Shown: positions 53,290-62,336, numbered from the stretch's first letter. The stretch is DNA of 64,000 nucleotides from an uncultured Nitrospiraceae bacterium (GCA_963727805.1 CAVSHF010000003.1:512001-576000), one strand, 5' to 3'. Notes: generated from the letters alone by a model not told the origin. Numbers and translations are program-made.

Positions 53290-53679
53290 CTACTTCTTAG
53301 CCTGTTTCGACGCTTTATTGAACCCCTTTGTCCCGATATGACATCTGGCGCACTGGGTATCCGAGGCGAATGCCATGCCGTCCTTTGCATGGCATGTTCC
53401 ACAGTATTTCTTATCATAGAGACCCTTCATATTGAAATCAGGCTTATTCTGAGCACTCAATGCTTCCATCTGAAAGATCTTCTCATGGCATGCATTGCAA
53501 TCAAGCCCCATGGCTGCATGACTCTTATGGCTGAACAACACTGATTTCACAGGCTTGCCATAGATAATCTCCCCGCCTCCGATCGTTTCATCTTCTGCAA
53601 TGCTCCGTCCCTCATACACGGTCATCATCACCGCAACGGCGAGCAAAATAATTAACACAGATATATGTTTCATGCGCAC
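53290..53679 (-). CDS. Periplasmic triheme c7-type cytochrome
   Basis: Signal peptide, FSHKSH, CNACH, CGTCH, CARCH. Confidence 0.92.
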   Translation of the reverse strand: MRMKHISVLIILLAVAVMMTVYEGRSIAEDETIGGGEIIYGKPVKSVLFSHKSHAAMGLDCNACHEKIFQMEALSAQNKPDFNMKGLYDKKYCGTCHAKDGMAFASDTQCARCHIGTKGFNKASKQAKK

Positions 53680-53703
53680 TGGGTACCCTCCCTCCTCATT
53701 TTA

Positions 53704-54459
53704 CTAACCTTTTGTGTAAAAAACATTCGGCTTTGCTCCGGCTTCAGGCCTCAATACCCATACCGTCTTTTCGAGGTTATGCACCGTCCGGAATACCTCG
53801 CTCCCTGAATCCGAAAGGTCTCCAAAGGTCCTGCATTTCGCCGGACATGCTTCAGCGCATGCAGTCAACTTCTCACCTTTGGAAAGCCGCGAGTTGAAGC
53901 AGAAATCGCATTTATCGACTGCTCTCGTCTCTTCATTAAAATACCGGGCGTTGTACGGGCAGGCCGCCAGGCAGGTCTTGCACCCAATGCACTTTTTTGA
54001 CTCCATCATAACGATGCCGGTCGTTGGGCTCTTGTACGTTGCCTTTGTCGGACATCCGGTTACACAAGGAGGATTATTGCACTGGTTACACAGCACCGGG
54101 ATGAATTCCCTGGACCTCTCCACCGCCTTGCGGTCCTCACGCTCCAGTATCCGCGTCCTGTATCCATAGGTCGGAACATTGTTCGTCTTGGCACAAACCG
54201 TCGTACACACTTCGCAGTCGATACAGCGGTCCTGATGTACAACCATACTGTAATGAGGCTTGTACGGATACTGTTCTGTAAACTCGCGGGTCGACGCAAA
54301 GGCCTTTCCAACTATCGAAGTCGCCGAAAGAATGCTCCCCCCCGCAAAAACCCCGGTGATCAGCAGGCCGAGTTTCAGAAAGTCACGCCTTTCAAGCGAG
54401 GGTATGATTTCGGGACTCTCCCGCTTCATACCGTCTATGTTTATTTTTTTGGATATCAT
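53704..54459 (-). CDS. Tat-exported 4x[4Fe-4S] protein (NrfC/PsrB family)
   Basis: RRDFLK Tat motif, four Cys clusters, PNVFY end; GGAGG SD before ATG 54459. Confidence 0.92.
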   Translation of the reverse strand: MISKKINIDGMKRESPEIIPSLERRDFLKLGLLITGVFAGGSILSATSIVGKAFASTREFTEQYPYKPHYSMVVHQDRCIDCEVCTTVCAKTNNVPTYGYRTRILEREDRKAVERSREFIPVLCNQCNNPPCVTGCPTKATYKSPTTGIVMMESKKCIGCKTCLAACPYNARYFNEETRAVDKCDFCFNSRLSKGEKLTACAEACPAKCRTFGDLSDSGSEVFRTVHNLEKTVWVLRPEAGAKPNVFYTKG

Positions 54460-54487
54460 CTCACATCCTCCATTGCCAATATCAGTC

Positions 54488-55711
54488 TCAGTGGATTTCA
54501 CTCTTGTGCCCGCTAAACACTTTTTCGCCTAGCAGGAAAGTGAGGCCTACGAATCCCATGCCCCCAAGCACGATCATAATCTCATGAGCCGACGGCGTGT
54601 AGGTAAGAAGCTGCGAATATTCGTTGACTCCCATCTCATAATACACCGGAACAAGCTGTCCCACGATTACAAGATCGTATCTCATGAAGAAGATACCGAA
54701 GATCATCAGGGCCGATGCCGTTACGATCATTTTGAGGTTCTGTCCCCGCGACAGTATGAACAGTGCCAGCGGAATCACCATGCCCGCCGCTACCTCTAGA
54801 CCCCAGAAGTTGAACGCATAGCTGCCGGTCAGTAGCAGCTCCAGCGCTGCCGTCTTGGCTTCTCCACCCACAAAGCCGGTAATGAACTTCCAGGCCGTGA
54901 AGAACAGGATCACCGAGATGAGAAGAATCCCAACCTTCGTCGTCACCTGCAGTGCCTTTTTCATTAAACCATCCATCTTTTGACCGTTGACCTTGTAAGC
55001 CAGCCACGTGAAAAAGATGATCGTGGCTGCTCCAGACATCATGGCAGATGCGATGAAGTAAATCGGCATGTAAGGTCCATACCAGAATTCCCGGCCATGG
55101 AGCATTCCGAAAACCGCGCCCAAATTGCTATGTGCCGCAATACCTGCAACAACCCCCATAAATCCAACTATAGTGGCTATCCGCGGTTTGTTTATCACAA
55201 GAAACGTGAATTCTACCGCCATAAACAACATATAAGCTCCGTAGAGAGTTCCCATCCACCAGATGTTAGAGGTCAAATTCGGCGAAATAACATTGTAGAT
55301 CGCCATCCTCAATGGATTCTCAATCTCAAACGCTATGACGAAGAATCCCGCCATAATCGTCATAATCGATAGAAATATAGCCCTCTTTGCTATAGGCATA
55401 AAATCCTTCACTCCAAATACATGCCCTATGGAAGATACAAGACACAATCCCGTAGAGGTTACGACAAAGAAAACATATGTCGAAATCAAAATACCCCAGG
55501 GCACTTCCCTCGATGCCCCATAAGCATGCATTGTGCCGACATACTGCGCATGAATCCCCGCAGCCACAGCGGTAAGTAAAAGAAGCCCTGAGATGATTAG
55601 TGCTGCATAGTAACCTTTTGTCCCCTGCAGGCTCTGTAATACTCCAGCGGTTCCCGCTCTCCAACCGGTTAGTACTGCAGCGTCAGCAGTCTTTGTGACA
55701 TCTTCAGCCAT
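54488..55711 (-). CDS. NrfD/PsrC-family quinone-interacting membrane subunit
   Basis: VPWGILISTYVFF, SNIWWMG, AHSNLG, RYDLVIVGQ; about 10 TMs. Confidence 0.92.
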   Translation of the reverse strand: MAEDVTKTADAAVLTGWRAGTAGVLQSLQGTKGYYAALIISGLLLLTAVAAGIHAQYVGTMHAYGASREVPWGILISTYVFFVVTSTGLCLVSSIGHVFGVKDFMPIAKRAIFLSIMTIMAGFFVIAFEIENPLRMAIYNVISPNLTSNIWWMGTLYGAYMLFMAVEFTFLVINKPRIATIVGFMGVVAGIAAHSNLGAVFGMLHGREFWYGPYMPIYFIASAMMSGAATIIFFTWLAYKVNGQKMDGLMKKALQVTTKVGILLISVILFFTAWKFITGFVGGEAKTAALELLLTGSYAFNFWGLEVAAGMVIPLALFILSRGQNLKMIVTASALMIFGIFFMRYDLVIVGQLVPVYYEMGVNEYSQLLTYTPSAHEIMIVLGGMGFVGLTFLLGEKVFSGHKSEIH

Positions 55712-55742: not shown

Positions 55743-56075
55743 TTAACTCTTTTTCTCTTTTACCGTCAGTCCTACTTGCGCCGTCTTGCCTGCTCTTACC
55801 GTATCCGCAACGGTTCCCGTCAACCACCCTATGATCGATATGCCAACCACAAATACAAATCCCGTTACCAAAACCGCCAGTACCATCGAAAGACCTACCA
55901 GCATCCTGGGTACAAGCTCCATGCCAAGCGGAGTCCCAAAAAGATGTCCCGCGATCTTCAATCCTAAAACACCACCAATAAATGAACTCGGCAGCAACCC
56001 GATTATCGCAAACAGTACCAAGCCTGCTACCGCCCCTGAATAAAGTCCCTTTCTTGCTATGTTGCCTGTTTTCAT
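55743..56075 (-). CDS. Gly-rich small membrane protein, paralog 2
   Basis: AAGGAG SD; clearly similar to 56114-56419. Confidence 0.8.
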   Translation of the reverse strand: MKTGNIARKGLYSGAVAGLVLFAIIGLLPSSFIGGVLGLKIAGHLFGTPLGMELVPRMLVGLSMVLAVLVTGFVFVVGISIIGWLTGTVADTVRAGKTAQVGLTVKEKKS

Positions 56076-56113
56076 AACCCACACTCCTTTCATATATAAT
56101 TGCGTTGAAATAG

Positions 56114-56419
56114 TTACACTGACCCCTGCAACCTTCTCAGCCGTGCCGCCAGGTTGATATTGGCTATCGCCCAGCCGATCAGAGACGTCCCAACAACAAA
56201 AACAAGCCCCGTCACCATTACCCCCGTTACCATCGATATGCCCACAACAGCCCTTGAAAGTAACGCAGTTTCTACGGTAGTTCCCAATACGTATGAAGCG
56301 ATCTTCAATCCAAGTACTCCACCTACAAAGGAACTGGGCAGCATGCCGATCAGTATGAATAAAACCAATCCTGCCGTCGCCCCTATGTATAAGCCTTTCT
56401 TTGCAGTTTCCGTTTTCAT
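56114..56419 (-). CDS. Gly-rich small membrane protein, paralog 1
   Basis: AGGAGG SD; shares GLVLF..IG.LPSSF.GGVLGLKIA with neighbour. Confidence 0.8.
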   Translation of the reverse strand: MKTETAKKGLYIGATAGLVLFILIGMLPSSFVGGVLGLKIASYVLGTTVETALLSRAVVGISMVTGVMVTGLVFVVGTSLIGWAIANINLAARLRRLQGSV

Positions 56420-56454
56420 GTGCCCTGTCCTCCTTTGTTCAGTTATCTATATCA

Positions 56455-56470
56455 AGCAGATTCCATGCCA
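56455..56470 (-). promoter_or_regulatory. Sigma-54 (-24/-12) promoter
   Basis: Minus strand TGGCATGGAATCTGCT (GG-N10-GC), 35 nt upstream of ATG 56419. Confidence 0.8.
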
Positions 56471-56512
56471 TCTCTTATTTCATTGATATTTCAGATATTT
56501 TTGTTTGATTTG

Positions 56513-56530
56513 TTTTGCAGAAATGCAAAA
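56513..56530. promoter_or_regulatory. Candidate enhancer (UAS) palindrome
   Basis: TTTTGCA-GAAA-TGCAAAA perfect inverted repeat upstream of the sigma-54 promoter. Confidence 0.6.
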
Positions 56531-56893
56531 ATATTTGCGGCTATAGGCATAAAAGCGAAAATGCTATCGATTGAAGGACGCTTCAGATCACGGTCCATCC
56601 ACACGGCGCCGCCTTCCGCCCCGGACGGCGTGAACACTGATAAACCTCAGCGCCGTCAGTATCATGAATGATTATGGAAATAATCATCGAACCGGCGTTA
56701 TCGTGCTCTATTTAGAGTCATTACCGCAGAGACATGGTTTATTATACAAGCTTTCTTGCTGAAGTCGAGACCATCGCTCGCCATGGAGGATGTTGGTGCC
56801 ACCTGCCAGTCACGAGTTCTCGCAGTATGGCCAGATCAATGATTAACAAAAAAGCTCACTGACCCGCAGTAGGTTGTTTTCTCAGAGGGAAAA

Positions 56894-58483
56894 TCATTCT
56901 GTCGTCTTCGGCTTTGGTAGTGTGAAGTAAAACATAGCGCCCTGTCCCATAATGCTTTCGGCCCAGACTTTTCCGCCATGTCGGGATATAATGCGCTGCA
57001 CATTCGCGAGGCCAATGCCCGTACCTTCAAATTCCTCCTGTGTATGTAGTCGCTGGAATACGCCGAAAAGCCTATCTGCATATTTCATGTCAAACCCTAT
57101 GCCGTTGTCTTTGACGAAAAAGATAGTTTCATCCTTGTCATTTTTATAGCCAATCTTAATTTCAGCATGGGGACGAGTACTCGTGTATTTAATTGCATTA
57201 GAGACCAGATTAGAAAGTACGAGACTCAGCATCGATGGATCACCATATACGTCAGGAAGTTCATCAATATCCCATGTAATATCTCGCGCCTGCACTTCAT
57301 GCTGACCTTCCCGGATAGCCGATCTCACAAGGGCACTTAAGTTTATTTTCTTCCTTTGCATCTCTGCACGGCCCATGCGGGAAAAAGCAAGAAGGTCGTC
57401 GATTAGCATCCCCATCCGTTTGGCAGAACCTGCTATCATATCTATATACTGTTGGCCTTTCACATCAAGTTGGCTCTGCACATGCTTTCGCAGCAATTCG
57501 ACAAAGCTCGACATGTGCCGGAGGGGGGCTCGAAGATCATGAGAAACTGTGTAGCTAAACTTCTCCAGTTCCTGATTCGCAGCAGTCAATTCGGTTGTAC
57601 GCTCCGCCACCAAATCCTCCAGATGCATCCGATATCGCTCCAACTCTTTCTCAGCTCCTTTGCGTTCGCTGATATCGCGTGCGACATGTACTCCTCCAAC
57701 CAACCGCCCATCCTTGCCGCGTAACGGCGAAACGGTTACCAGGTAATCAGCAGCCAAGCGGTCGTCGCGCATCTCCACGGTGCATTCTCGTCCGTCCTCA
57801 AGAACCCGGCTGTATGGACAACTCGGCGGGGCCACGCTGTTACCGCAGACTGCGCCATAACATGTTAGTCCGACACATTCCTCTGGTGGCATGCCCAGCC
57901 TGACTGCCATAGCCTTGTTCGCACGGACAATTCGATATTCAAGGTCTAGCAAGGCGATCGCGTCGGGGACCGCTTCGAATGTTCGTTCCCAATCGTCCTT
58001 CGCTTGAAGGACGGCCGTCTCTGAAATTTTGCGGGAGTACGTTGCTCCAATAAGTCCGGCAACTGCCAAATAGAGATCAAGTGTTTCATTCTCCAGCTGA
58101 GTGGCCGATAGGTGCCCCACCATCATCACCGCGATCACATGATTTTCATGAGGTATGGGAAAGAAGGCTGCAGCGATTGGATCATCAGATGGAATGGATA
58201 TAAACGTGAGAAAGCCGTTCTCAAAAACATCGCCCATCGCTTCGATGATTTCAGGTTTCGAAAGCCGACGTGAGGCACCCCTATCGGAAAATGCCCAGTG
58301 GTCGATCTCGATTGCTCCGTCAGGATGCTGTCTTCCAAAGGCAGCAAAGTCGGCCCCGAAAAACTTGATCAGTACCTTTCCCGCCTCTTCCCAGATATCC
58401 TGCCCGGTTGTCAGAGCGGCTAAATATTGGGCGGCATTTATAAACGCCTTCAATTGGTGCTTATCAGAAAACGATCTGGTCAT
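56894..58483 (-). CDS. Soluble sensor histidine kinase (GAF-like, PAS, HisKA, HATPase)
   Basis: No TM; WERTFEAVPD PAS, SHDLRAPL, DNGIG, FQRLH, GTGIGL; start 58483 (alternative 58525). Confidence 0.9.
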   Translation of the reverse strand: MTRSFSDKHQLKAFINAAQYLAALTTGQDIWEEAGKVLIKFFGADFAAFGRQHPDGAIEIDHWAFSDRGASRRLSKPEIIEAMGDVFENGFLTFISIPSDDPIAAAFFPIPHENHVIAVMMVGHLSATQLENETLDLYLAVAGLIGATYSRKISETAVLQAKDDWERTFEAVPDAIALLDLEYRIVRANKAMAVRLGMPPEECVGLTCYGAVCGNSVAPPSCPYSRVLEDGRECTVEMRDDRLAADYLVTVSPLRGKDGRLVGGVHVARDISERKGAEKELERYRMHLEDLVAERTTELTAANQELEKFSYTVSHDLRAPLRHMSSFVELLRKHVQSQLDVKGQQYIDMIAGSAKRMGMLIDDLLAFSRMGRAEMQRKKINLSALVRSAIREGQHEVQARDITWDIDELPDVYGDPSMLSLVLSNLVSNAIKYTSTRPHAEIKIGYKNDKDETIFFVKDNGIGFDMKYADRLFGVFQRLHTQEEFEGTGIGLANVQRIISRHGGKVWAESIMGQGAMFYFTLPKPKTTE

Positions 58484-60089
58484 GGCAAATATTCTCAATA
58501 CTAGATTGTAAATGGAGATTTTCAAGGAAAAGCGTCTCGAACTCGGCGACGGAGGATAAATTTACAAAGACTGCATTACTCCTGACCTCCTGCAACCGTG
58601 CTTTAGCGTCAGGCGAAAGGAGCAATGCTTCGCATCCGGAGAGTGCCGTGTTGCCAGAAGTTTCTATAGATAGCCCAATGATTGCCGGCAGAAGCCCTAT
58701 CTGCTGAGCATTTGCTATATTGAGATATTGTCCGAAAATTCCGCCAATGCATATTCGCCGCAACTCGCGATATTCCATGCCTGCTTTCGTCATCAGGACC
58801 TTGACGGCTACTCCGATGGCGGCTTTTGCGCGTTGAAACATGTCGATGTCTCTCTTGGTCAGGACAATCTCCAGGTCGTCGCGACGAATTGGCAATCCAT
58901 ATGCTGGAACGGACGGTGCGAATTGCCCCTTGTTGTTCAATGTCCCGTTTCTAACGAGGCATGCAAGCAGGTCTACCATGCCGGACCCGCACAAACCTCG
59001 TGGTTCGGCGTCGGCAACGACGTCGAATGCAAGCTCTCCTGTCGTATCGGAAATATGTACACGGTAAATGGCGCCCGGTTCCGCCGCCATGCCGCAGCTT
59101 ATACCGCAACCCTCAAAAGCTGGGCCTCCGGCTGCAGATGTCGCCCATAGCTTGTTCCCGTCCCAAAGGGCTACCTCCGAATTGGTCCCAAAATCGACCA
59201 GAAGAGCACCGCGACCATGTTCAATCAGGTTTGTTGCTATGACGCCGGAAAGAAGATCGGAGCCTACAAAACCTGCCAAGGGAGCAATAACGTCGATAGC
59301 CGCTTTCGAGCTAATCCCCCAGTTAGCACCCCATGATGCCGTTTCCAGAGGAAGGCATTCAATAGATTCACTCCAGTAGCGCGGTTGCAACAAAAGATGA
59401 TGGTTTTGCCCCGACAACAGGGCCAGCATCGCGGTGTTTCCCACTATAACAACACGTTCAACCCTTCGCAGGTCGATTCCCTCCCTAGTTCCAATATCGT
59501 GCAAACCCTCACCTATTGCCTGAATAACCTGTCGGCTCAATTTTTCACCATGTTCGTCTGATTGTGCCGACATCAGGCGAGTCAGGACATCGGTGCCCGA
59601 GTCAGATTGCGGATTAAGGCCACGGCGCCCCGCCAAACGGCCGTGGGTTTGAATATCCAGCAATGAAATTGAAATGTGGGTAGTTCCGAGATCTACACTG
59701 GCGCCGATAGGATGTGCTGTTTCCGGGTGAGACGCCCGTTGTGAGCCCGGGATGCAGGTTTTGTTCCATCCCCGGTCGAGGCTACGCCATACCGATTTGG
59801 GGGCGGGGCTGAGAATCTCGATTTGCATATCCCGCTCCACTTTCACCTGGCAGGCAAGCCGCACCCCTTGAGACAGCAACCTTGTGCCGAGGTTTGTCAG
59901 CTCATTCACCGAAGGTGCCCCCGCGTTGCCGCCCACAACCTTGATGCGGCACATGCCGCAGGCGCCCGCACCGTTACATCCGCTGCGGACCCGCAGGTCA
60001 GTTTCATCGAGGATATCACGGACGGAACGACCGGACAGGAATGGCATCTGTCGATCTTTATCCGCCCGCTTAACAGTGAGAATAGGCAC
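58464..60089 (-). CDS. RACo-type ATP-dependent reductive activator of corrinoid proteins ([2Fe-2S] + ASKHA)
   Basis: CNGAGACGMC...RLACQ, DLGTT, DFGTNSE, GPAFEG, GLCGSG. Confidence 0.9.
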   Translation of the reverse strand: MPILTVKRADKDRQMPFLSGRSVRDILDETDLRVRSGCNGAGACGMCRIKVVGGNAGAPSVNELTNLGTRLLSQGVRLACQVKVERDMQIEILSPAPKSVWRSLDRGWNKTCIPGSQRASHPETAHPIGASVDLGTTHISISLLDIQTHGRLAGRRGLNPQSDSGTDVLTRLMSAQSDEHGEKLSRQVIQAIGEGLHDIGTREGIDLRRVERVVIVGNTAMLALLSGQNHHLLLQPRYWSESIECLPLETASWGANWGISSKAAIDVIAPLAGFVGSDLLSGVIATNLIEHGRGALLVDFGTNSEVALWDGNKLWATSAAGGPAFEGCGISCGMAAEPGAIYRVHISDTTGELAFDVVADAEPRGLCGSGMVDLLACLVRNGTLNNKGQFAPSVPAYGLPIRRDDLEIVLTKRDIDMFQRAKAAIGVAVKVLMTKAGMEYRELRRICIGGIFGQYLNIANAQQIGLLPAIIGLSIETSGNTALSGCEALLLSPDAKARLQEVRSNAVFVNLSSVAEFETLFLENLHLQSSIENICHDQIVF

Positions 60090-61105
60090 TAAATCACCAC
60101 TTGTCGTGTGGCGCGCACCATGGCGACCACATTCTCAGGTTTGGATTCTGGGGGGATTTCACATCCGGAAGAGAGGATAAGGCCTCCGTGCGAACTGAAA
60201 AGTTCCAGCAAACTTGCCGACTCCTCAGCAATGTCGTCTGGTGTAGCTTCGACAAAAGAAAGTGGTTTTATGTTGCCGTCAAGACAGGTCTGGGGCAGAA
60301 TCTGCCGTGCACGAAGTGGATCGATGCAGTAATCGAAATTTGCAATGTCCACTCCGGCCTCCGGATAAAAAGGATAGATCGTTTCAGCCGGACCGGCGAT
60401 ATGAAGCCAGCTGGCAAACGATCCTCCTGACTTCAATGCAGAAAAAAGCCTTTTTATGCGCGGCAGCACGAACTCACGGAAAAACTGTGGAGGGATGACC
60501 GCTGGCGAGGCGGAAGGATCGAATACCAACGGCAGATGTGCCCCTGCATCGATCTGAGCCAAGCCGAAAGAAACAGCAACTTCTAATGAAAAATCTAGAA
60601 CTTTGGCAAAGAGATCCGGTTCGTCTGCGGCAAGGAAAAGAGTCTTCTCTGGCCCCATCAATTGCATTGCCAGAGTCATCGGGCCTAAGACGCAGCCGAC
60701 AATCAGGACCTCGTCCTGCAGCTCACGGCGCATAATCTGCGCAGCCTTGAGTATTTCAGGCATGCGACCGCTCCGTTTGGGATCCGGCACAGCGAGCTTA
60801 TCCACGTCCCCGGCATCCGCAATTGCATACTGTTCGATAAATGGGTACATATCGGCGCGGTAGGTCAGGCTCGCACCAACCGCTTCGGTCTCCACGCCGG
60901 CATCCATGAGTGCGAAGACGGCATCGTAGCCGTAATAAGAAAGTGCATTCATCTGGCAGCGCGCCAATAGTTCGCCGTCTCTGACATACGATCCCAGGGA
61001 CACATTACCGAGGACAGCCGCATGCCCGAAAACCTGAGCAATCACAGGCACTCGGTCAGGTTTTCCAAAACTTAACGTCGCCTGAATCCGATCCAGGCTG
61101 TTCAT
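60089..61105 (-). CDS. URO-D/MtaA-CmuA family methyltransferase-like protein
   Basis: PDRVPV, ETEAVGA, GRMP, GNI, LSSGCEIP, PENV; located between corrinoid protein and RACo. Confidence 0.85.
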   Translation of the reverse strand: MNSLDRIQATLSFGKPDRVPVIAQVFGHAAVLGNVSLGSYVRDGELLARCQMNALSYYGYDAVFALMDAGVETEAVGASLTYRADMYPFIEQYAIADAGDVDKLAVPDPKRSGRMPEILKAAQIMRRELQDEVLIVGCVLGPMTLAMQLMGPEKTLFLAADEPDLFAKVLDFSLEVAVSFGLAQIDAGAHLPLVFDPSASPAVIPPQFFREFVLPRIKRLFSALKSGGSFASWLHIAGPAETIYPFYPEAGVDIANFDYCIDPLRARQILPQTCLDGNIKPLSFVEATPDDIAEESASLLELFSSHGGLILSSGCEIPPESKPENVVAMVRATRQVVI

Positions 61106-61740
61106 TTTATCTCCTGGTTAGGACGATCGAGGTAACGAATGCCATCAAAAACGGAATCTGCCACATAATCCACATTGAGAATATCCTCACTAGCCTGCTT
61201 CAATGCTGCTCCCCCCGCTAAAATCTTTACTTTTGTCAGACCGCGCGCTCGCGCCAAAGGCATGACCCGCCGCACCAATGGGATAACGCTCGTTATAAGG
61301 CCGCTTATAGCAATTATCTCTGCCCCTTCCCGAACGGCGGCATCAACCAGTTTCTCTACAGGACAGTCCTTGCCGCAATCAACGACCCTGTATCCCTTGG
61401 CAGTCATGATAGTCTTGACAATATTTTTCCCCAGGTCATGAACATCACCTTCAAGGCTTGCAATTACAACAATTCCTCGTGTGGCTAGAGGGGGCAAATC
61501 AGGATAAAGTGTCTTGATAACTCCCATCACCGCCCGCCCGACAAGCATTATTTCAAGCAGGTTGAACTGCTCCACAGTGCATTTTGTATCGAGCAACTCC
61601 ATGGCTTTCTCAATGCCATCGGTAATGATCACTTCATTATCAATGCTGGCATTTCGCAAGACAGTTACCTCAGAAATGGCACGTGCCTGATCACCATCTA
61701 GCAAAGCTTCAATAAGTTTTTCCAGAGATTGGTTATTCAT
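61102..61740 (-). CDS. Corrinoid (B12-binding) protein, MtaC/MtbC-like
   Basis: Helical cap, EGDVHDLGKNIV (DxHxxG), SGL, GGA. Confidence 0.92.
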   Translation of the reverse strand: MNNQSLEKLIEALLDGDQARAISEVTVLRNASIDNEVIITDGIEKAMELLDTKCTVEQFNLLEIMLVGRAVMGVIKTLYPDLPPLATRGIVVIASLEGDVHDLGKNIVKTIMTAKGYRVVDCGKDCPVEKLVDAAVREGAEIIAISGLITSVIPLVRRVMPLARARGLTKVKILAGGAALKQASEDILNVDYVADSVFDGIRYLDRPNQEIK

Positions 61741-62336
61741 AGATCATCTGAATATATTTTCTATGTTAGAATGACGGAAAGCTTCTGGTCAAGAAAGTGC
61801 TGTGGGAGAAGGTGCATATTTTGCTCACAGACCATTTCTTAAGCTATGGAAGGCGGATATGTTGTTAACCCCTGACAAAAGGTGTTGACCCTATTTCCAT
61901 GTAACGACACATTCCGCCTAAACTCCACAACGGCAGTCTGTTTGGCCTACCTCCCTTATTAACTGCAGTCCAATATACTACTTTAAATCTAAACCGGTTT
62001 AAATGAAGCGGGTCAACTATATGCAATCATTCTGTGCGGCGTCCGAACTACATTGGAACTCGTGTACAAACCTGCTCGGAATTTCCTGCTTAGTCTTTCC
62101 GCTTCAATCAGCAACGCTCGCATATCCAAAAAGCATTTACTTTCGAGAAGTTATTCGCACTGTAGTTTGCATTTTATTTGTAACATAGTAGACGTATACA
62201 TAAATCCTCCAATATCAAGCGTTTATTTCACAATAAAAGCCGGCTTGTATCAATAGATGGGACTTTAGCGAGCGAAATGGTATATATTAGTTACCCCATA
62301 TAACAAGTTAACACTACTTCAGCCACGGCAACATCA

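Follow-up and report, generated by a model that had tools for sequence, protein, structure and literature searches.

Four overlapping genes on the minus strand of a contig from an uncultured Nitrospiraceae bacterium (GCA_963727805.1 CAVSHF010000003.1:512001-576000, a 64,000-nt stretch referred to here as the window) belong to a real and widely conserved cassette, which probably serves kinases and cyclases as an input module that reads the state of a corrinoid. In reading order, these open reading frames (ORFs) encode a corrinoid, or cobamide-binding, protein (61102-61740), an MtaA-like methyltransferase homolog of the uroporphyrinogen decarboxylase (URO-D) fold (60089-61105), a RACo/AcsV-type ATP-dependent reductive activator (58464-60089), and a sensor histidine kinase (56894-58483). 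The overlaps reported in a preliminary description of this DNA are all present at these coordinates: the corrinoid and methyltransferase genes share an ATGA at 61102-61105, ahead of which an AGGAG can be read from the DNA, the TAG of the methyltransferase gene and the GTG of the RACo gene have base 60089 in common, and the RACo and kinase genes overlap by 20 nt at 58464-58483, the kinase frame opening at a TTG at 58525 and having its ATG at 58483. These overlaps suggest that the four genes are co-transcribed. Scans for promoters and terminators gave counts at chance level (6 versus 7.0 and 6 versus 5.9). The flanks of about 0.5-0.6 kb that had been described as free of genes measure 474 nt (56420-56893) and 596 nt (61741-62336), with no gene-like ORF in either, and no response regulator gene stands beside the window kinase.

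The corrinoid protein, 212 residues long, combines a four-helix cap bundle with a Rossmann domain (Pfam B12-binding, 2.2e-21). It aligns over its full length with the methyltransferase corrinoid proteins 4jgi, 7xcn, and 1y80, which are its closest solved relatives, and has the cap-plus-Rossmann layout of the MtaC/MtbC/MttC type; we propose it as the mobile sensor subunit of the cassette. Its DxHxxG motif (D99, H101, and G104; 61429-61446) does not vary in any of the 85 aligned rows and would supply the cobalt ligand, with the cobamide bound His-on by analogy with the MetH/MtaC family. GxxH and GxxxP are present as well. Specific to the family is a cap motif at residues 53-69 (KC-T-x-E-x-FNLLEIML-x-GR; 61534-61584), in which C54, T55, L61, E63, I64, M65, G68, and R69 are invariant in the same 85 rows and residues 59-69 form the helix predicted to dock on the kinase. 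The aromatic cap residue of methyltransferase corrinoid proteins is replaced here by the invariant Cys54, which occupies the position of a Phe in 4jgi, 7xcn, 1y80, and 8ssd (MttC, MtaC-like proteins, and MetH), a residue that we take to be equivalent to Phe708 of E. coli MetH; Cys122 and Cys126 are likewise conserved, and a disulfide or metal site formed by Cys54 and Cys126 is conceivable. The MetH cap is reported to lie over the upper face of the cobalamin, where it sequesters the methyl radical upon Co-C homolysis (PMC10293825), and to shift by about 25 Å on uncapping (PMC10567725; PMC10293825). A photoreceptor of the CarH type was considered and rejected: the GxxW and EH motifs are absent, their positions reading DTKC and IM in a register set by alignments to other cap domains and by what is known of CarH, and the NCBIfam CarH score is 21.6 bits against a cut-off of 400.

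The second protein, of 338 residues, falls in Pfam URO-D (2.3e-69), and its common database label of uroporphyrinogen decarboxylase follows from that family. Our analysis corrects this label. The structural model (predicted local distance difference test score, pLDDT, 96.1) matches MtaA best (4ay7, Z 43.2, root-mean-square deviation 1.7 over 328 aligned residues), with UroD behind at Z 37.7, and the best NCBIfam family is MtaA/CmuA (TIGR01463) at 164 bits, below its cut-off of 235; HemE was rejected, with 88.8 bits for TIGR01464 against a cut-off of 302.95. The family is well conserved, at 72% mean column identity, and its zinc site is altered. In place of the His-Cys-Cys site of the MtaA/MtbA/MtsA S-methyltransferases we find His235-Ile-Ala237 with Asp258 and Cys315, the LHICG of 4ay7 aligning with LHIAG, and A237 and C315 are invariant in 85 rows, as is Asp258. 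S-methyltransferases are reported to carry His-Cys-Cys, with one or both cysteines replaced in O-methyltransferases (PMC10418091), and CdmB is reported as a zinc-free chloromethane methyltransferase of the URO-D fold (PMC13222342). The altered site thus points away from a thiol substrate and does not in itself name the donor; because the thiol-activating His-Cys-Cys site is changed, an O-methyl compound or a methyl halide would be the likeliest donor class.

The third protein, of 541 residues, has the features of the RACo/AcsV/RamQ activators, an N-terminal 2Fe-2S domain followed by ASKHA ATPase motifs. Pfam Fer2, Raco_middle, and RACo_C_ter all score above their cut-offs, the protein falls below the AcsV equivalog cut-off, and the Fe-S and ASKHA motifs are retained in 107, 108, and 102 of 109 full-length relatives.

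The last gene encodes a kinase of 529 residues counted from the ATG, with a GAF-PAS-HisKA-HATPase architecture (Pfam HisKA and HATPase_c). It was taken from the outset to be soluble, and it does lack a transmembrane stretch (highest 19-residue hydropathy 1.15); its H, N, G1, and G2 boxes are intact and it has the features of a HisKA sensor kinase. The PAS domain (57659-57979; PAS_4, 1.3e-15) is variable, is missing from many relatives, and lies outside the conserved module. The part that is conserved is the N-terminal domain (residues 4-165; 57989-58474). Pfam has no hit in the first ~165 residues, and no Pfam GAF model matches at E<=0.05, yet the predicted structure (pLDDT 91.1) is a GAF fold, matching the GAF domain of PtsP (3trc, Z 14.8, root-mean-square deviation 2.8 over 139 aligned residues) and 3mmh (Z 14.8), with a Foldseek match to 4g3k at E 2.6e-7 and Atlas neighbors that are GAF clusters. 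Searched by profile among 1.84 billion representatives, the family comprises 382 clusters at E<=0.001 and 339 at 1e-10, and in the best 150 of these the domain starts at or before residue 30 with three exceptions. Conservation across 97 sequences falls on Gln, Tyr, Phe, Leu, Gly, Ala, Pro, and Val; no position occupied by Cys, His, Glu, Asp, or Lys reaches the 85% level.

The arrangement of these genes recurs widely. An alignment of 32 methyltransferase relatives was used to collect the best 80 of 240 species-genome matches and the best 80 of 413 metagenome matches, and 136 of the resulting 160 loci were kept after near-duplicates had been removed. In all 124 loci with enough flank, the methyltransferase-like gene is immediately preceded by a corrinoid gene, and a protein with the N-terminal domain of our kinase is encoded downstream in 97 of 98 testable loci, the exception (L170) having a broken RACo. 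In related loci the gap between the corrinoid and methyltransferase genes has a median of -4 nt and is <=30 nt in 133 of 142 cases. Judged by the recurrence of the same order and tight spacing in related loci, the arrangement exceeds what chance would produce. Carriers were found in Nitrospirota, Thermodesulfobacteriota, Myxococcota, Chloroflexota, Acidobacteriota, Bacillota, Pseudomonadota, Fermentibacterota, Methanocellaceae, and Methanomassiliicoccales, and include phototrophs (Thiodictyon, Chloroploca, and Oscillochloris) as well as many methanogens and anaerobes of sediment and peat. One cultured carrier, Ca. Thiodictyon syntrophicum Cad16, has the cassette with a diguanylate cyclase on plasmid pTs417 (THSYN_RS29480-29495). 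The distribution is patchy, and a FastTree phylogeny of the methyltransferases has an unresolved backbone, with 38 of 86 branches open.

Within the phylum of the host, the GAF family occurs in 14 of 301 genomes, all of which are among the 17 that carry the methyltransferase family; 13 of the 14 have the GAF domain in a cassette, and in the fourteenth it stands behind a fragment of a corrinoid gene. A sister subfamily, followed by a kinase whose GAF domain is recognizable to Pfam, is found in the three other methyltransferase genomes and also at a second locus of one of the 14. In a sample of 401 genomes from another phylum, just 2 have the GAF family, too few for a second reciprocal test. A decayed cassette was observed (L210:3181-6029), with a GAF hybrid kinase behind a fragment matching residues 4-54 of the corrinoid protein, in a genome that has the sister subfamily elsewhere. 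In sister-subfamily loci L029, L030, L031, and L033, the corrinoid cap motif is the same, including its Cys, and the zinc His of the methyltransferase is lost; the kinase GAF domain of this subfamily has several conserved cysteines, possibly a metal site, and L033 has no RACo.

While the GAF domain stays constant, what follows it changes. Pfam annotation of 42 + 56 picked proteins identified HisKA, HisKA_2, HisKA_3, and hybrid kinases, GGDEF, GGDEF+HD, HD, and SpoIIE outputs. The 106 GAF proteins encoded in cassettes comprise 58 plain kinases, 15 hybrid kinases, 2 HisKA_2 and 1 HisKA_3 kinases, 10 GGDEF proteins, and 1 SpoIIE protein, the rest being cut by contig ends (10) or having no output in the same frame (9). 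A BLAST tally over the best 150 clusters gave 105 kinases, 7 GGDEF, 1 GGDEF+HD, 3 HD, and 5 SpoIIE, with 29, many of them short, left unassigned. A GAF-like domain with varying outputs near corrinoid genes, as the preliminary description had envisaged, therefore does exist, with kinases, GGDEF, HD-type, and SpoIIE proteins behind it. One constant head with changing outputs and the same corrinoid genes ahead of it is the pattern of a sensory input module.

Gene fusions point in the same direction. Two proteins of about 550 residues each (P0122 and P0123) join the corrinoid protein to the methyltransferase, and a locus in Methanomassiliicoccales (L103:2489-4993) encodes a full RACo-GAF-HisKA fusion of 834 residues. 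In seven loci (L021, L023, L024, L062, L104, L171, and L178) the ATPase part of RACo is gone and its 2Fe-2S domain is fused ahead of the GAF kinase, with the four Fe-S cysteines intact in the six fusions checked. Through these fusions to RACo or its 2Fe-2S domain, the GAF domain is physically tied to the corrinoid-handling machinery. A weak search among 77 longer corrinoid-protein candidates returned no fusion of the corrinoid protein itself to GAF.

The genes around the cassettes add to this picture. When 735 flanking ORFs were clustered, with families judged from representatives, only kinases and response regulators recurred in more than six loci. The adjacent same-strand genes were then examined, 33 of the 38 lying downstream and 32 of the 36 lying upstream, after near-duplicates and two truncated genes had been dropped and matches to the kinase core filtered out beforehand: 23 of the 33 downstream neighbors are signaling proteins (19 with a receiver domain, 3 GGDEF, and 1 CheB/CheR), and the upstream neighbors are unrelated housekeeping genes or, in six cases, signaling genes. 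No corrinoid methyltransferase was found in these 65 flanking genes, a scan that did not extend to a profile search for more distant genes of the MtrH, MttB, or MtaB type. A second URO-D gene is present in 1 of the 160 loci, the other 159 having a single one, no relative of the host AcsE occurs in any of the loci L018-L193, and genes for cobamide synthesis or uptake do not recur beside the cassette. The arrangement that had been named as contrary evidence, homologs sitting beside catabolic methyltransferases with no signaling gene, was looked for and not seen in this clade. A histidine kinase with MEDS and PAS domains lies just upstream of the cassette in a locus from Methanocellaceae (L049:5245-7020); MEDS domains are associated with the sensing of small C1 or halomethane compounds.

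Modeling of the corrinoid protein with the kinase N-terminus supports binding between the two. Two GAF copies folded together with the corrinoid protein gave an interface score (ipSAE) of 0.64 (0.64, 0.65, and 0.63 over the runs), with all three controls at 0.00; as a rough calibration, the 0.64 mark is reached by 116 of 157 solved complexes and by 2 of 215 mismatched pairs. Contacts agree among runs to 88% or more, and partner pLDDT does not fall below 79. In the prediction, the invariant cap helix of the corrinoid protein sits between the two GAF copies; residues 56-72 of the cap and 106 and 123-126 of the Rossmann domain contact residues 88-93 and 132-140 of one GAF copy and 16-23 and 33-41 of the other. 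Interface positions are more conserved than the rest on both sides (0.70 versus 0.49 for GAF, 0.91 versus 0.65 for the corrinoid protein). The titles of structure matches include no complex of a GAF domain with a corrinoid protein, which makes it unlikely that the prediction simply reproduces a solved one. Mirror-distance correlations (GAF-corrinoid 0.79, GAF-methyltransferase 0.80, and corrinoid-methyltransferase 0.70) show joint inheritance of these sequences and cannot tell which protein binds GAF. Taken together, the neighborhoods, the varying outputs behind the GAF domain, and the controlled complex prediction lend good support to the earlier proposal that the corrinoid trio serves as an input module for the kinase.

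By tblastn, the corrinoid gene and the kinase N-terminal domain have no further match in the genome of the host and the methyltransferase gene has a single weak one, 24% identical; the closest relatives carry the labels Nitrospirota/Dissulfurispiraceae. The host encodes a Wood-Ljungdahl acs cluster with an AcsE-like gene, two RACo/AcsV paralogs besides the cassette RACo, which is thus its third copy, and CobS (the acs cluster and RACo paralogs lie near 275900 and at 1419000-1425100 on C3 and near 98000 on C5). Ten other matches to the B12-binding domain were found in the host, none in a frame of MetH length. A tetrahydrofolate (THF) methyltransferase had been said to be missing, and this holds for the window and fails for the genome: because the host has AcsE, a folate methyltransferase is present in trans.

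How might such a system work? The reading that we favor, which we hold tentatively and would put slightly short of an even chance, is that within this conserved four-gene cassette the corrinoid protein docks on a GAF dimer, as predicted, and that the state of its cobalt, likely set by methylation, switches the kinase. By the known chemistry of these families, RACo would prime the cobamide from Co(II) to Co(I) at the expense of ATP, with an electron delivered through its 2Fe-2S center, and the MtaA-like protein would then transfer a methyl group from a small non-thiol donor to Co(I), yielding methyl-Co(III). The cap helix (residues 59-72) and Rossmann residues 106 and 123-126 are predicted to contact a patch built by both GAF protomers. 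Because this patch spans the cap and the Rossmann domain, GAF would prefer the capped corrinoid protein, binding it and releasing it once the cap has opened to either the methyltransferase or RACo. Docking may displace the long helix by which GAF continues into the PAS/HisKA coiled coil, and so alter autophosphorylation; in relatives it would alter cyclic di-GMP synthesis or phosphatase activity instead. The least supported step is the reset, which could involve slow loss of the methyl group (by oxidation, photolysis, Cys54, or a methyltransferase acting in trans such as AcsE) followed by RACo.

Several points weigh against this scheme. Methylation that runs one way without an acceptor needs an off-switch, which the model leaves unexplained. 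The sister subfamily, about 40% identical, lacks the zinc His as well, and for that reason the methyltransferase-like protein may be a scaffold and not a catalyst. RACo is absent from 5 of 114 raw loci with a long downstream flank, and only its 2Fe-2S domain is left in another 4 of the 114. Given such loci, RACo looks to be a common component and not an essential one; its earlier casting as the reset is too strong if that role is taken as obligatory. The complex was folded without cobalamin, from its own alignments and with two GAF copies, so that the calibration counts hold only roughly, and the conservation comparison depends on the model, since the same alignments fed both. Finally, the loci were picked by closeness to the query, kin included, and the counts accordingly describe this clade and not corrinoid clusters in general.

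The alternative that fares best keeps the same docking and changes the signal to an oxidant, a low-potential electron pool, or light, with the methyltransferase and RACo serving only to keep the cobamide charged. O2, N2O, or NO would oxidize Co(I), or methyl-Co(III) would be photolyzed, and Cys54 would ligate the cobalt or trap the methyl radical. An invariant cap Cys where methyl carriers have Phe would suit such chemistry, particularly since the MetH cap is reported to sequester the methyl radical (PMC10293825), as would the conservation of Cys122 and Cys126, the retention of a GAF-fused 2Fe-2S domain where the ATPase part of RACo is lost, and the phototrophs among the carriers. A pure redox sensor has no obvious need, however, of a methyltransferase as well conserved as this one, many of the carriers are methanogens or sediment and peat anaerobes, and the CarH signature as reported (GxxW and EH; PMC11796333) is absent; we regard this explanation as a close rival, possible but rather unlikely.

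We are more doubtful of a small catabolic or detoxifying module, with one bifunctional MtsA-like enzyme, whose only link to the regulator is a common operon, the regulator detecting the same compound in a GAF pocket of its own. There are precedents for its parts: MtsA/MtsB and the fused MtsD/F/H are reported to manage with one methyltransferase (10.1101/548461), Methanosarcina kinases to regulate mts transcription (10.1101/2021.03.04.434021), and the mec cassette to combine a PocR kinase with corrinoid genes (10.1101/2021.08.30.458270). The AcsE of the host could moreover take methyl groups in trans. What makes this explanation improbable is that the His-Cys-Cys site of S-methyltransferases is altered, that no catabolic neighbor recurs in the sampled loci, and that the outputs include cyclases, HD proteins, and SpoIIE phosphatases and not dedicated transcription regulators. 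In addition, the sensor gene stands at the end of the cassette and overlaps that of RACo, GAF is found fused to RACo and to Fer2, and the conserved GAF residues fall on the predicted protein interface.

A sensor of cobamide availability, in which GAF binding differs between apo and holo forms of the corrinoid protein and the URO-D-fold protein acts as a loader that binds tetrapyrroles, seems to us very unlikely. URO-D folds do bind tetrapyrroles (UroD matches at Z of about 37), and the zinc ligands erode over two subfamilies, but the fold is clearly nearer to MtaA (Z 43.2) than to UroD, no cobamide synthesis or uptake genes recur beside the cassette, CobS is encoded by the host, and RACo implies redox cycling. 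Least credible of all, and close to dismissal, is a covalent hand-over of the methyl group to the N-terminal domain of the kinase, which had been raised at the start and has found little support: the loci encode no soluble methyl acceptor enzyme and GAF is predicted near the cobalamin-binding face, but the 97 GAF sequences offer no conserved Cys, His, Glu, Asp, or Lys as acceptor and the predicted contacts are with the cap helix, in a capped arrangement that shields the cobalt.

In any case, the readings in which the corrinoid protein is the input to the kinase are, when combined, probable. It is fairly likely, in our view, that the free corrinoid protein is a rechargeable organometallic messenger, its cobalt state set by a methyltransferase-like writer and an ATP-driven reductase and tuned by Cys54, read by a GAF dimer, and passed to swappable kinase, diguanylate cyclase, HD phosphodiesterase, or phosphatase outputs in bacteria and archaea. 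If so, a methyl-carrier corrinoid protein as input to kinases and cyclases would be a sensing principle different from known B12-based sensing, which includes riboswitches. Adenosylcobalamin photoreceptors are another known form (PMC11796333). Small molecules that are nearly invisible to ordinary binding pockets do react with Co(I), and anaerobes could in this way detect methyl halides, O-methyl compounds, N2O, and other small molecules that are otherwise inert. Since the cassette is spread over anaerobes of peat, soil, and sediment and over methanogens, it may point to a cue in the environment that reports on C1, halomethane, or redox conditions. A GAF family of 382 clusters with a predicted protein partner is defined as well, and the proposal is directly testable, as all four proteins are soluble and Ca. 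Thiodictyon syntrophicum Cad16 is in culture.

Beyond the downstream flank of the cassette, the window encodes on its minus strand two similar hydrophobic proteins in tandem, of 116 and 101 residues (55743-56093 and 56114-56419), the 101-residue protein being without a Pfam match. The pair heads a gene run encoding NrfD, a 4Fe-4S dicluster protein, and a cytochrome c7 (53290-55711).

The preliminary description knew of no characterized system with this layout, and a search of the full-text literature, whose coverage leaves out supplements and most subscription journals, likewise returned no corrinoid methyl-carrier protein described as the input of a signaling enzyme; the nearest systems each fail at least one defining feature. 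The Methanosarcina systems MtaA/MtaC, MtbA/MtbC, MtsA/MtsB, MtsD/F/H, and MtpA/MtpC share with the cassette a cap-plus-Rossmann corrinoid protein, a URO-D-fold methyltransferase, and a reductive activator, and the two occasionally show the same fusion of corrinoid protein to methyltransferase. The cassette differs in having His-x-Ala for His-x-Cys, a cap Cys for Phe, NCBIfam scores below cut-off, no acceptor methyltransferase, and an overlapping signaling gene with a dedicated GAF domain; the Methanosarcina kinases are described as regulating mts transcription and not as reading the corrinoid protein (10.1101/2021.03.04.434021).

Likened by its description, the mec cassette of anaerobic dichloromethane degraders (MecA, a PocR kinase, with the corrinoid protein MecB, MecC, and the activator MecH) also places a sensor kinase beside a corrinoid protein, URO-D-type methyltransferases, and an activator, and in Dehalobacter mecABC is reported to stand alone next to cfrAB (10.1101/2021.08.30.458270). 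What sets it apart is the presence of MecE, of MecF as THF methyltransferase, and of a transporter, and a PocR sensor that the same report proposes to bind the substrate itself. Type 1 mlp clusters resemble the cassette in reportedly combining one or more MtaA-like genes with a corrinoid protein as well as an activator of the Ram/RACE kind, with no folate methylase nearby, and differ in having at least two Mlps with His-Cys-Cys and sulfur or selenium genes as neighbors (PMC10418091); the cassette was rejected as such a cluster, having one URO-D gene (159 of 160 loci), His-Ala-Cys, and a signaling gene. CdmB/CdmC of Acetobacterium dehalogenans and CmuA of Methylorubrum, in which a URO-D fold feeds methyl groups to Co(I), provide a model for the proposed input step. 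Both are only distant relatives, CmuA being 27% identical and keeping H-T-C and CdmB giving a profile match to the family at 4.1e-9 that covers half of CdmB, and both are catabolic with a folate methyltransferase partner, unlike the cassette. Assignment to a three-component catabolic system (O-demethylase, Cdm, Cmu, or mec) was likewise rejected, as the second methyltransferase that methylates folate or coenzyme M is absent from cassette loci. In CarH, the photocobilins, and other photoreceptors that bind B12, a cobalamin-binding domain controls a signaling output, a diguanylate cyclase included, and in the CarH type the adenosylcobalamin domain, with its GxxW and EH motifs, is reported to be fused to that output (PMC11796333). 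The cassette, lacking both motifs, has instead a separate B12 protein, which comes along with a methyltransferase and RACo and for which action in trans on GAF is predicted; it is built from known protein families.

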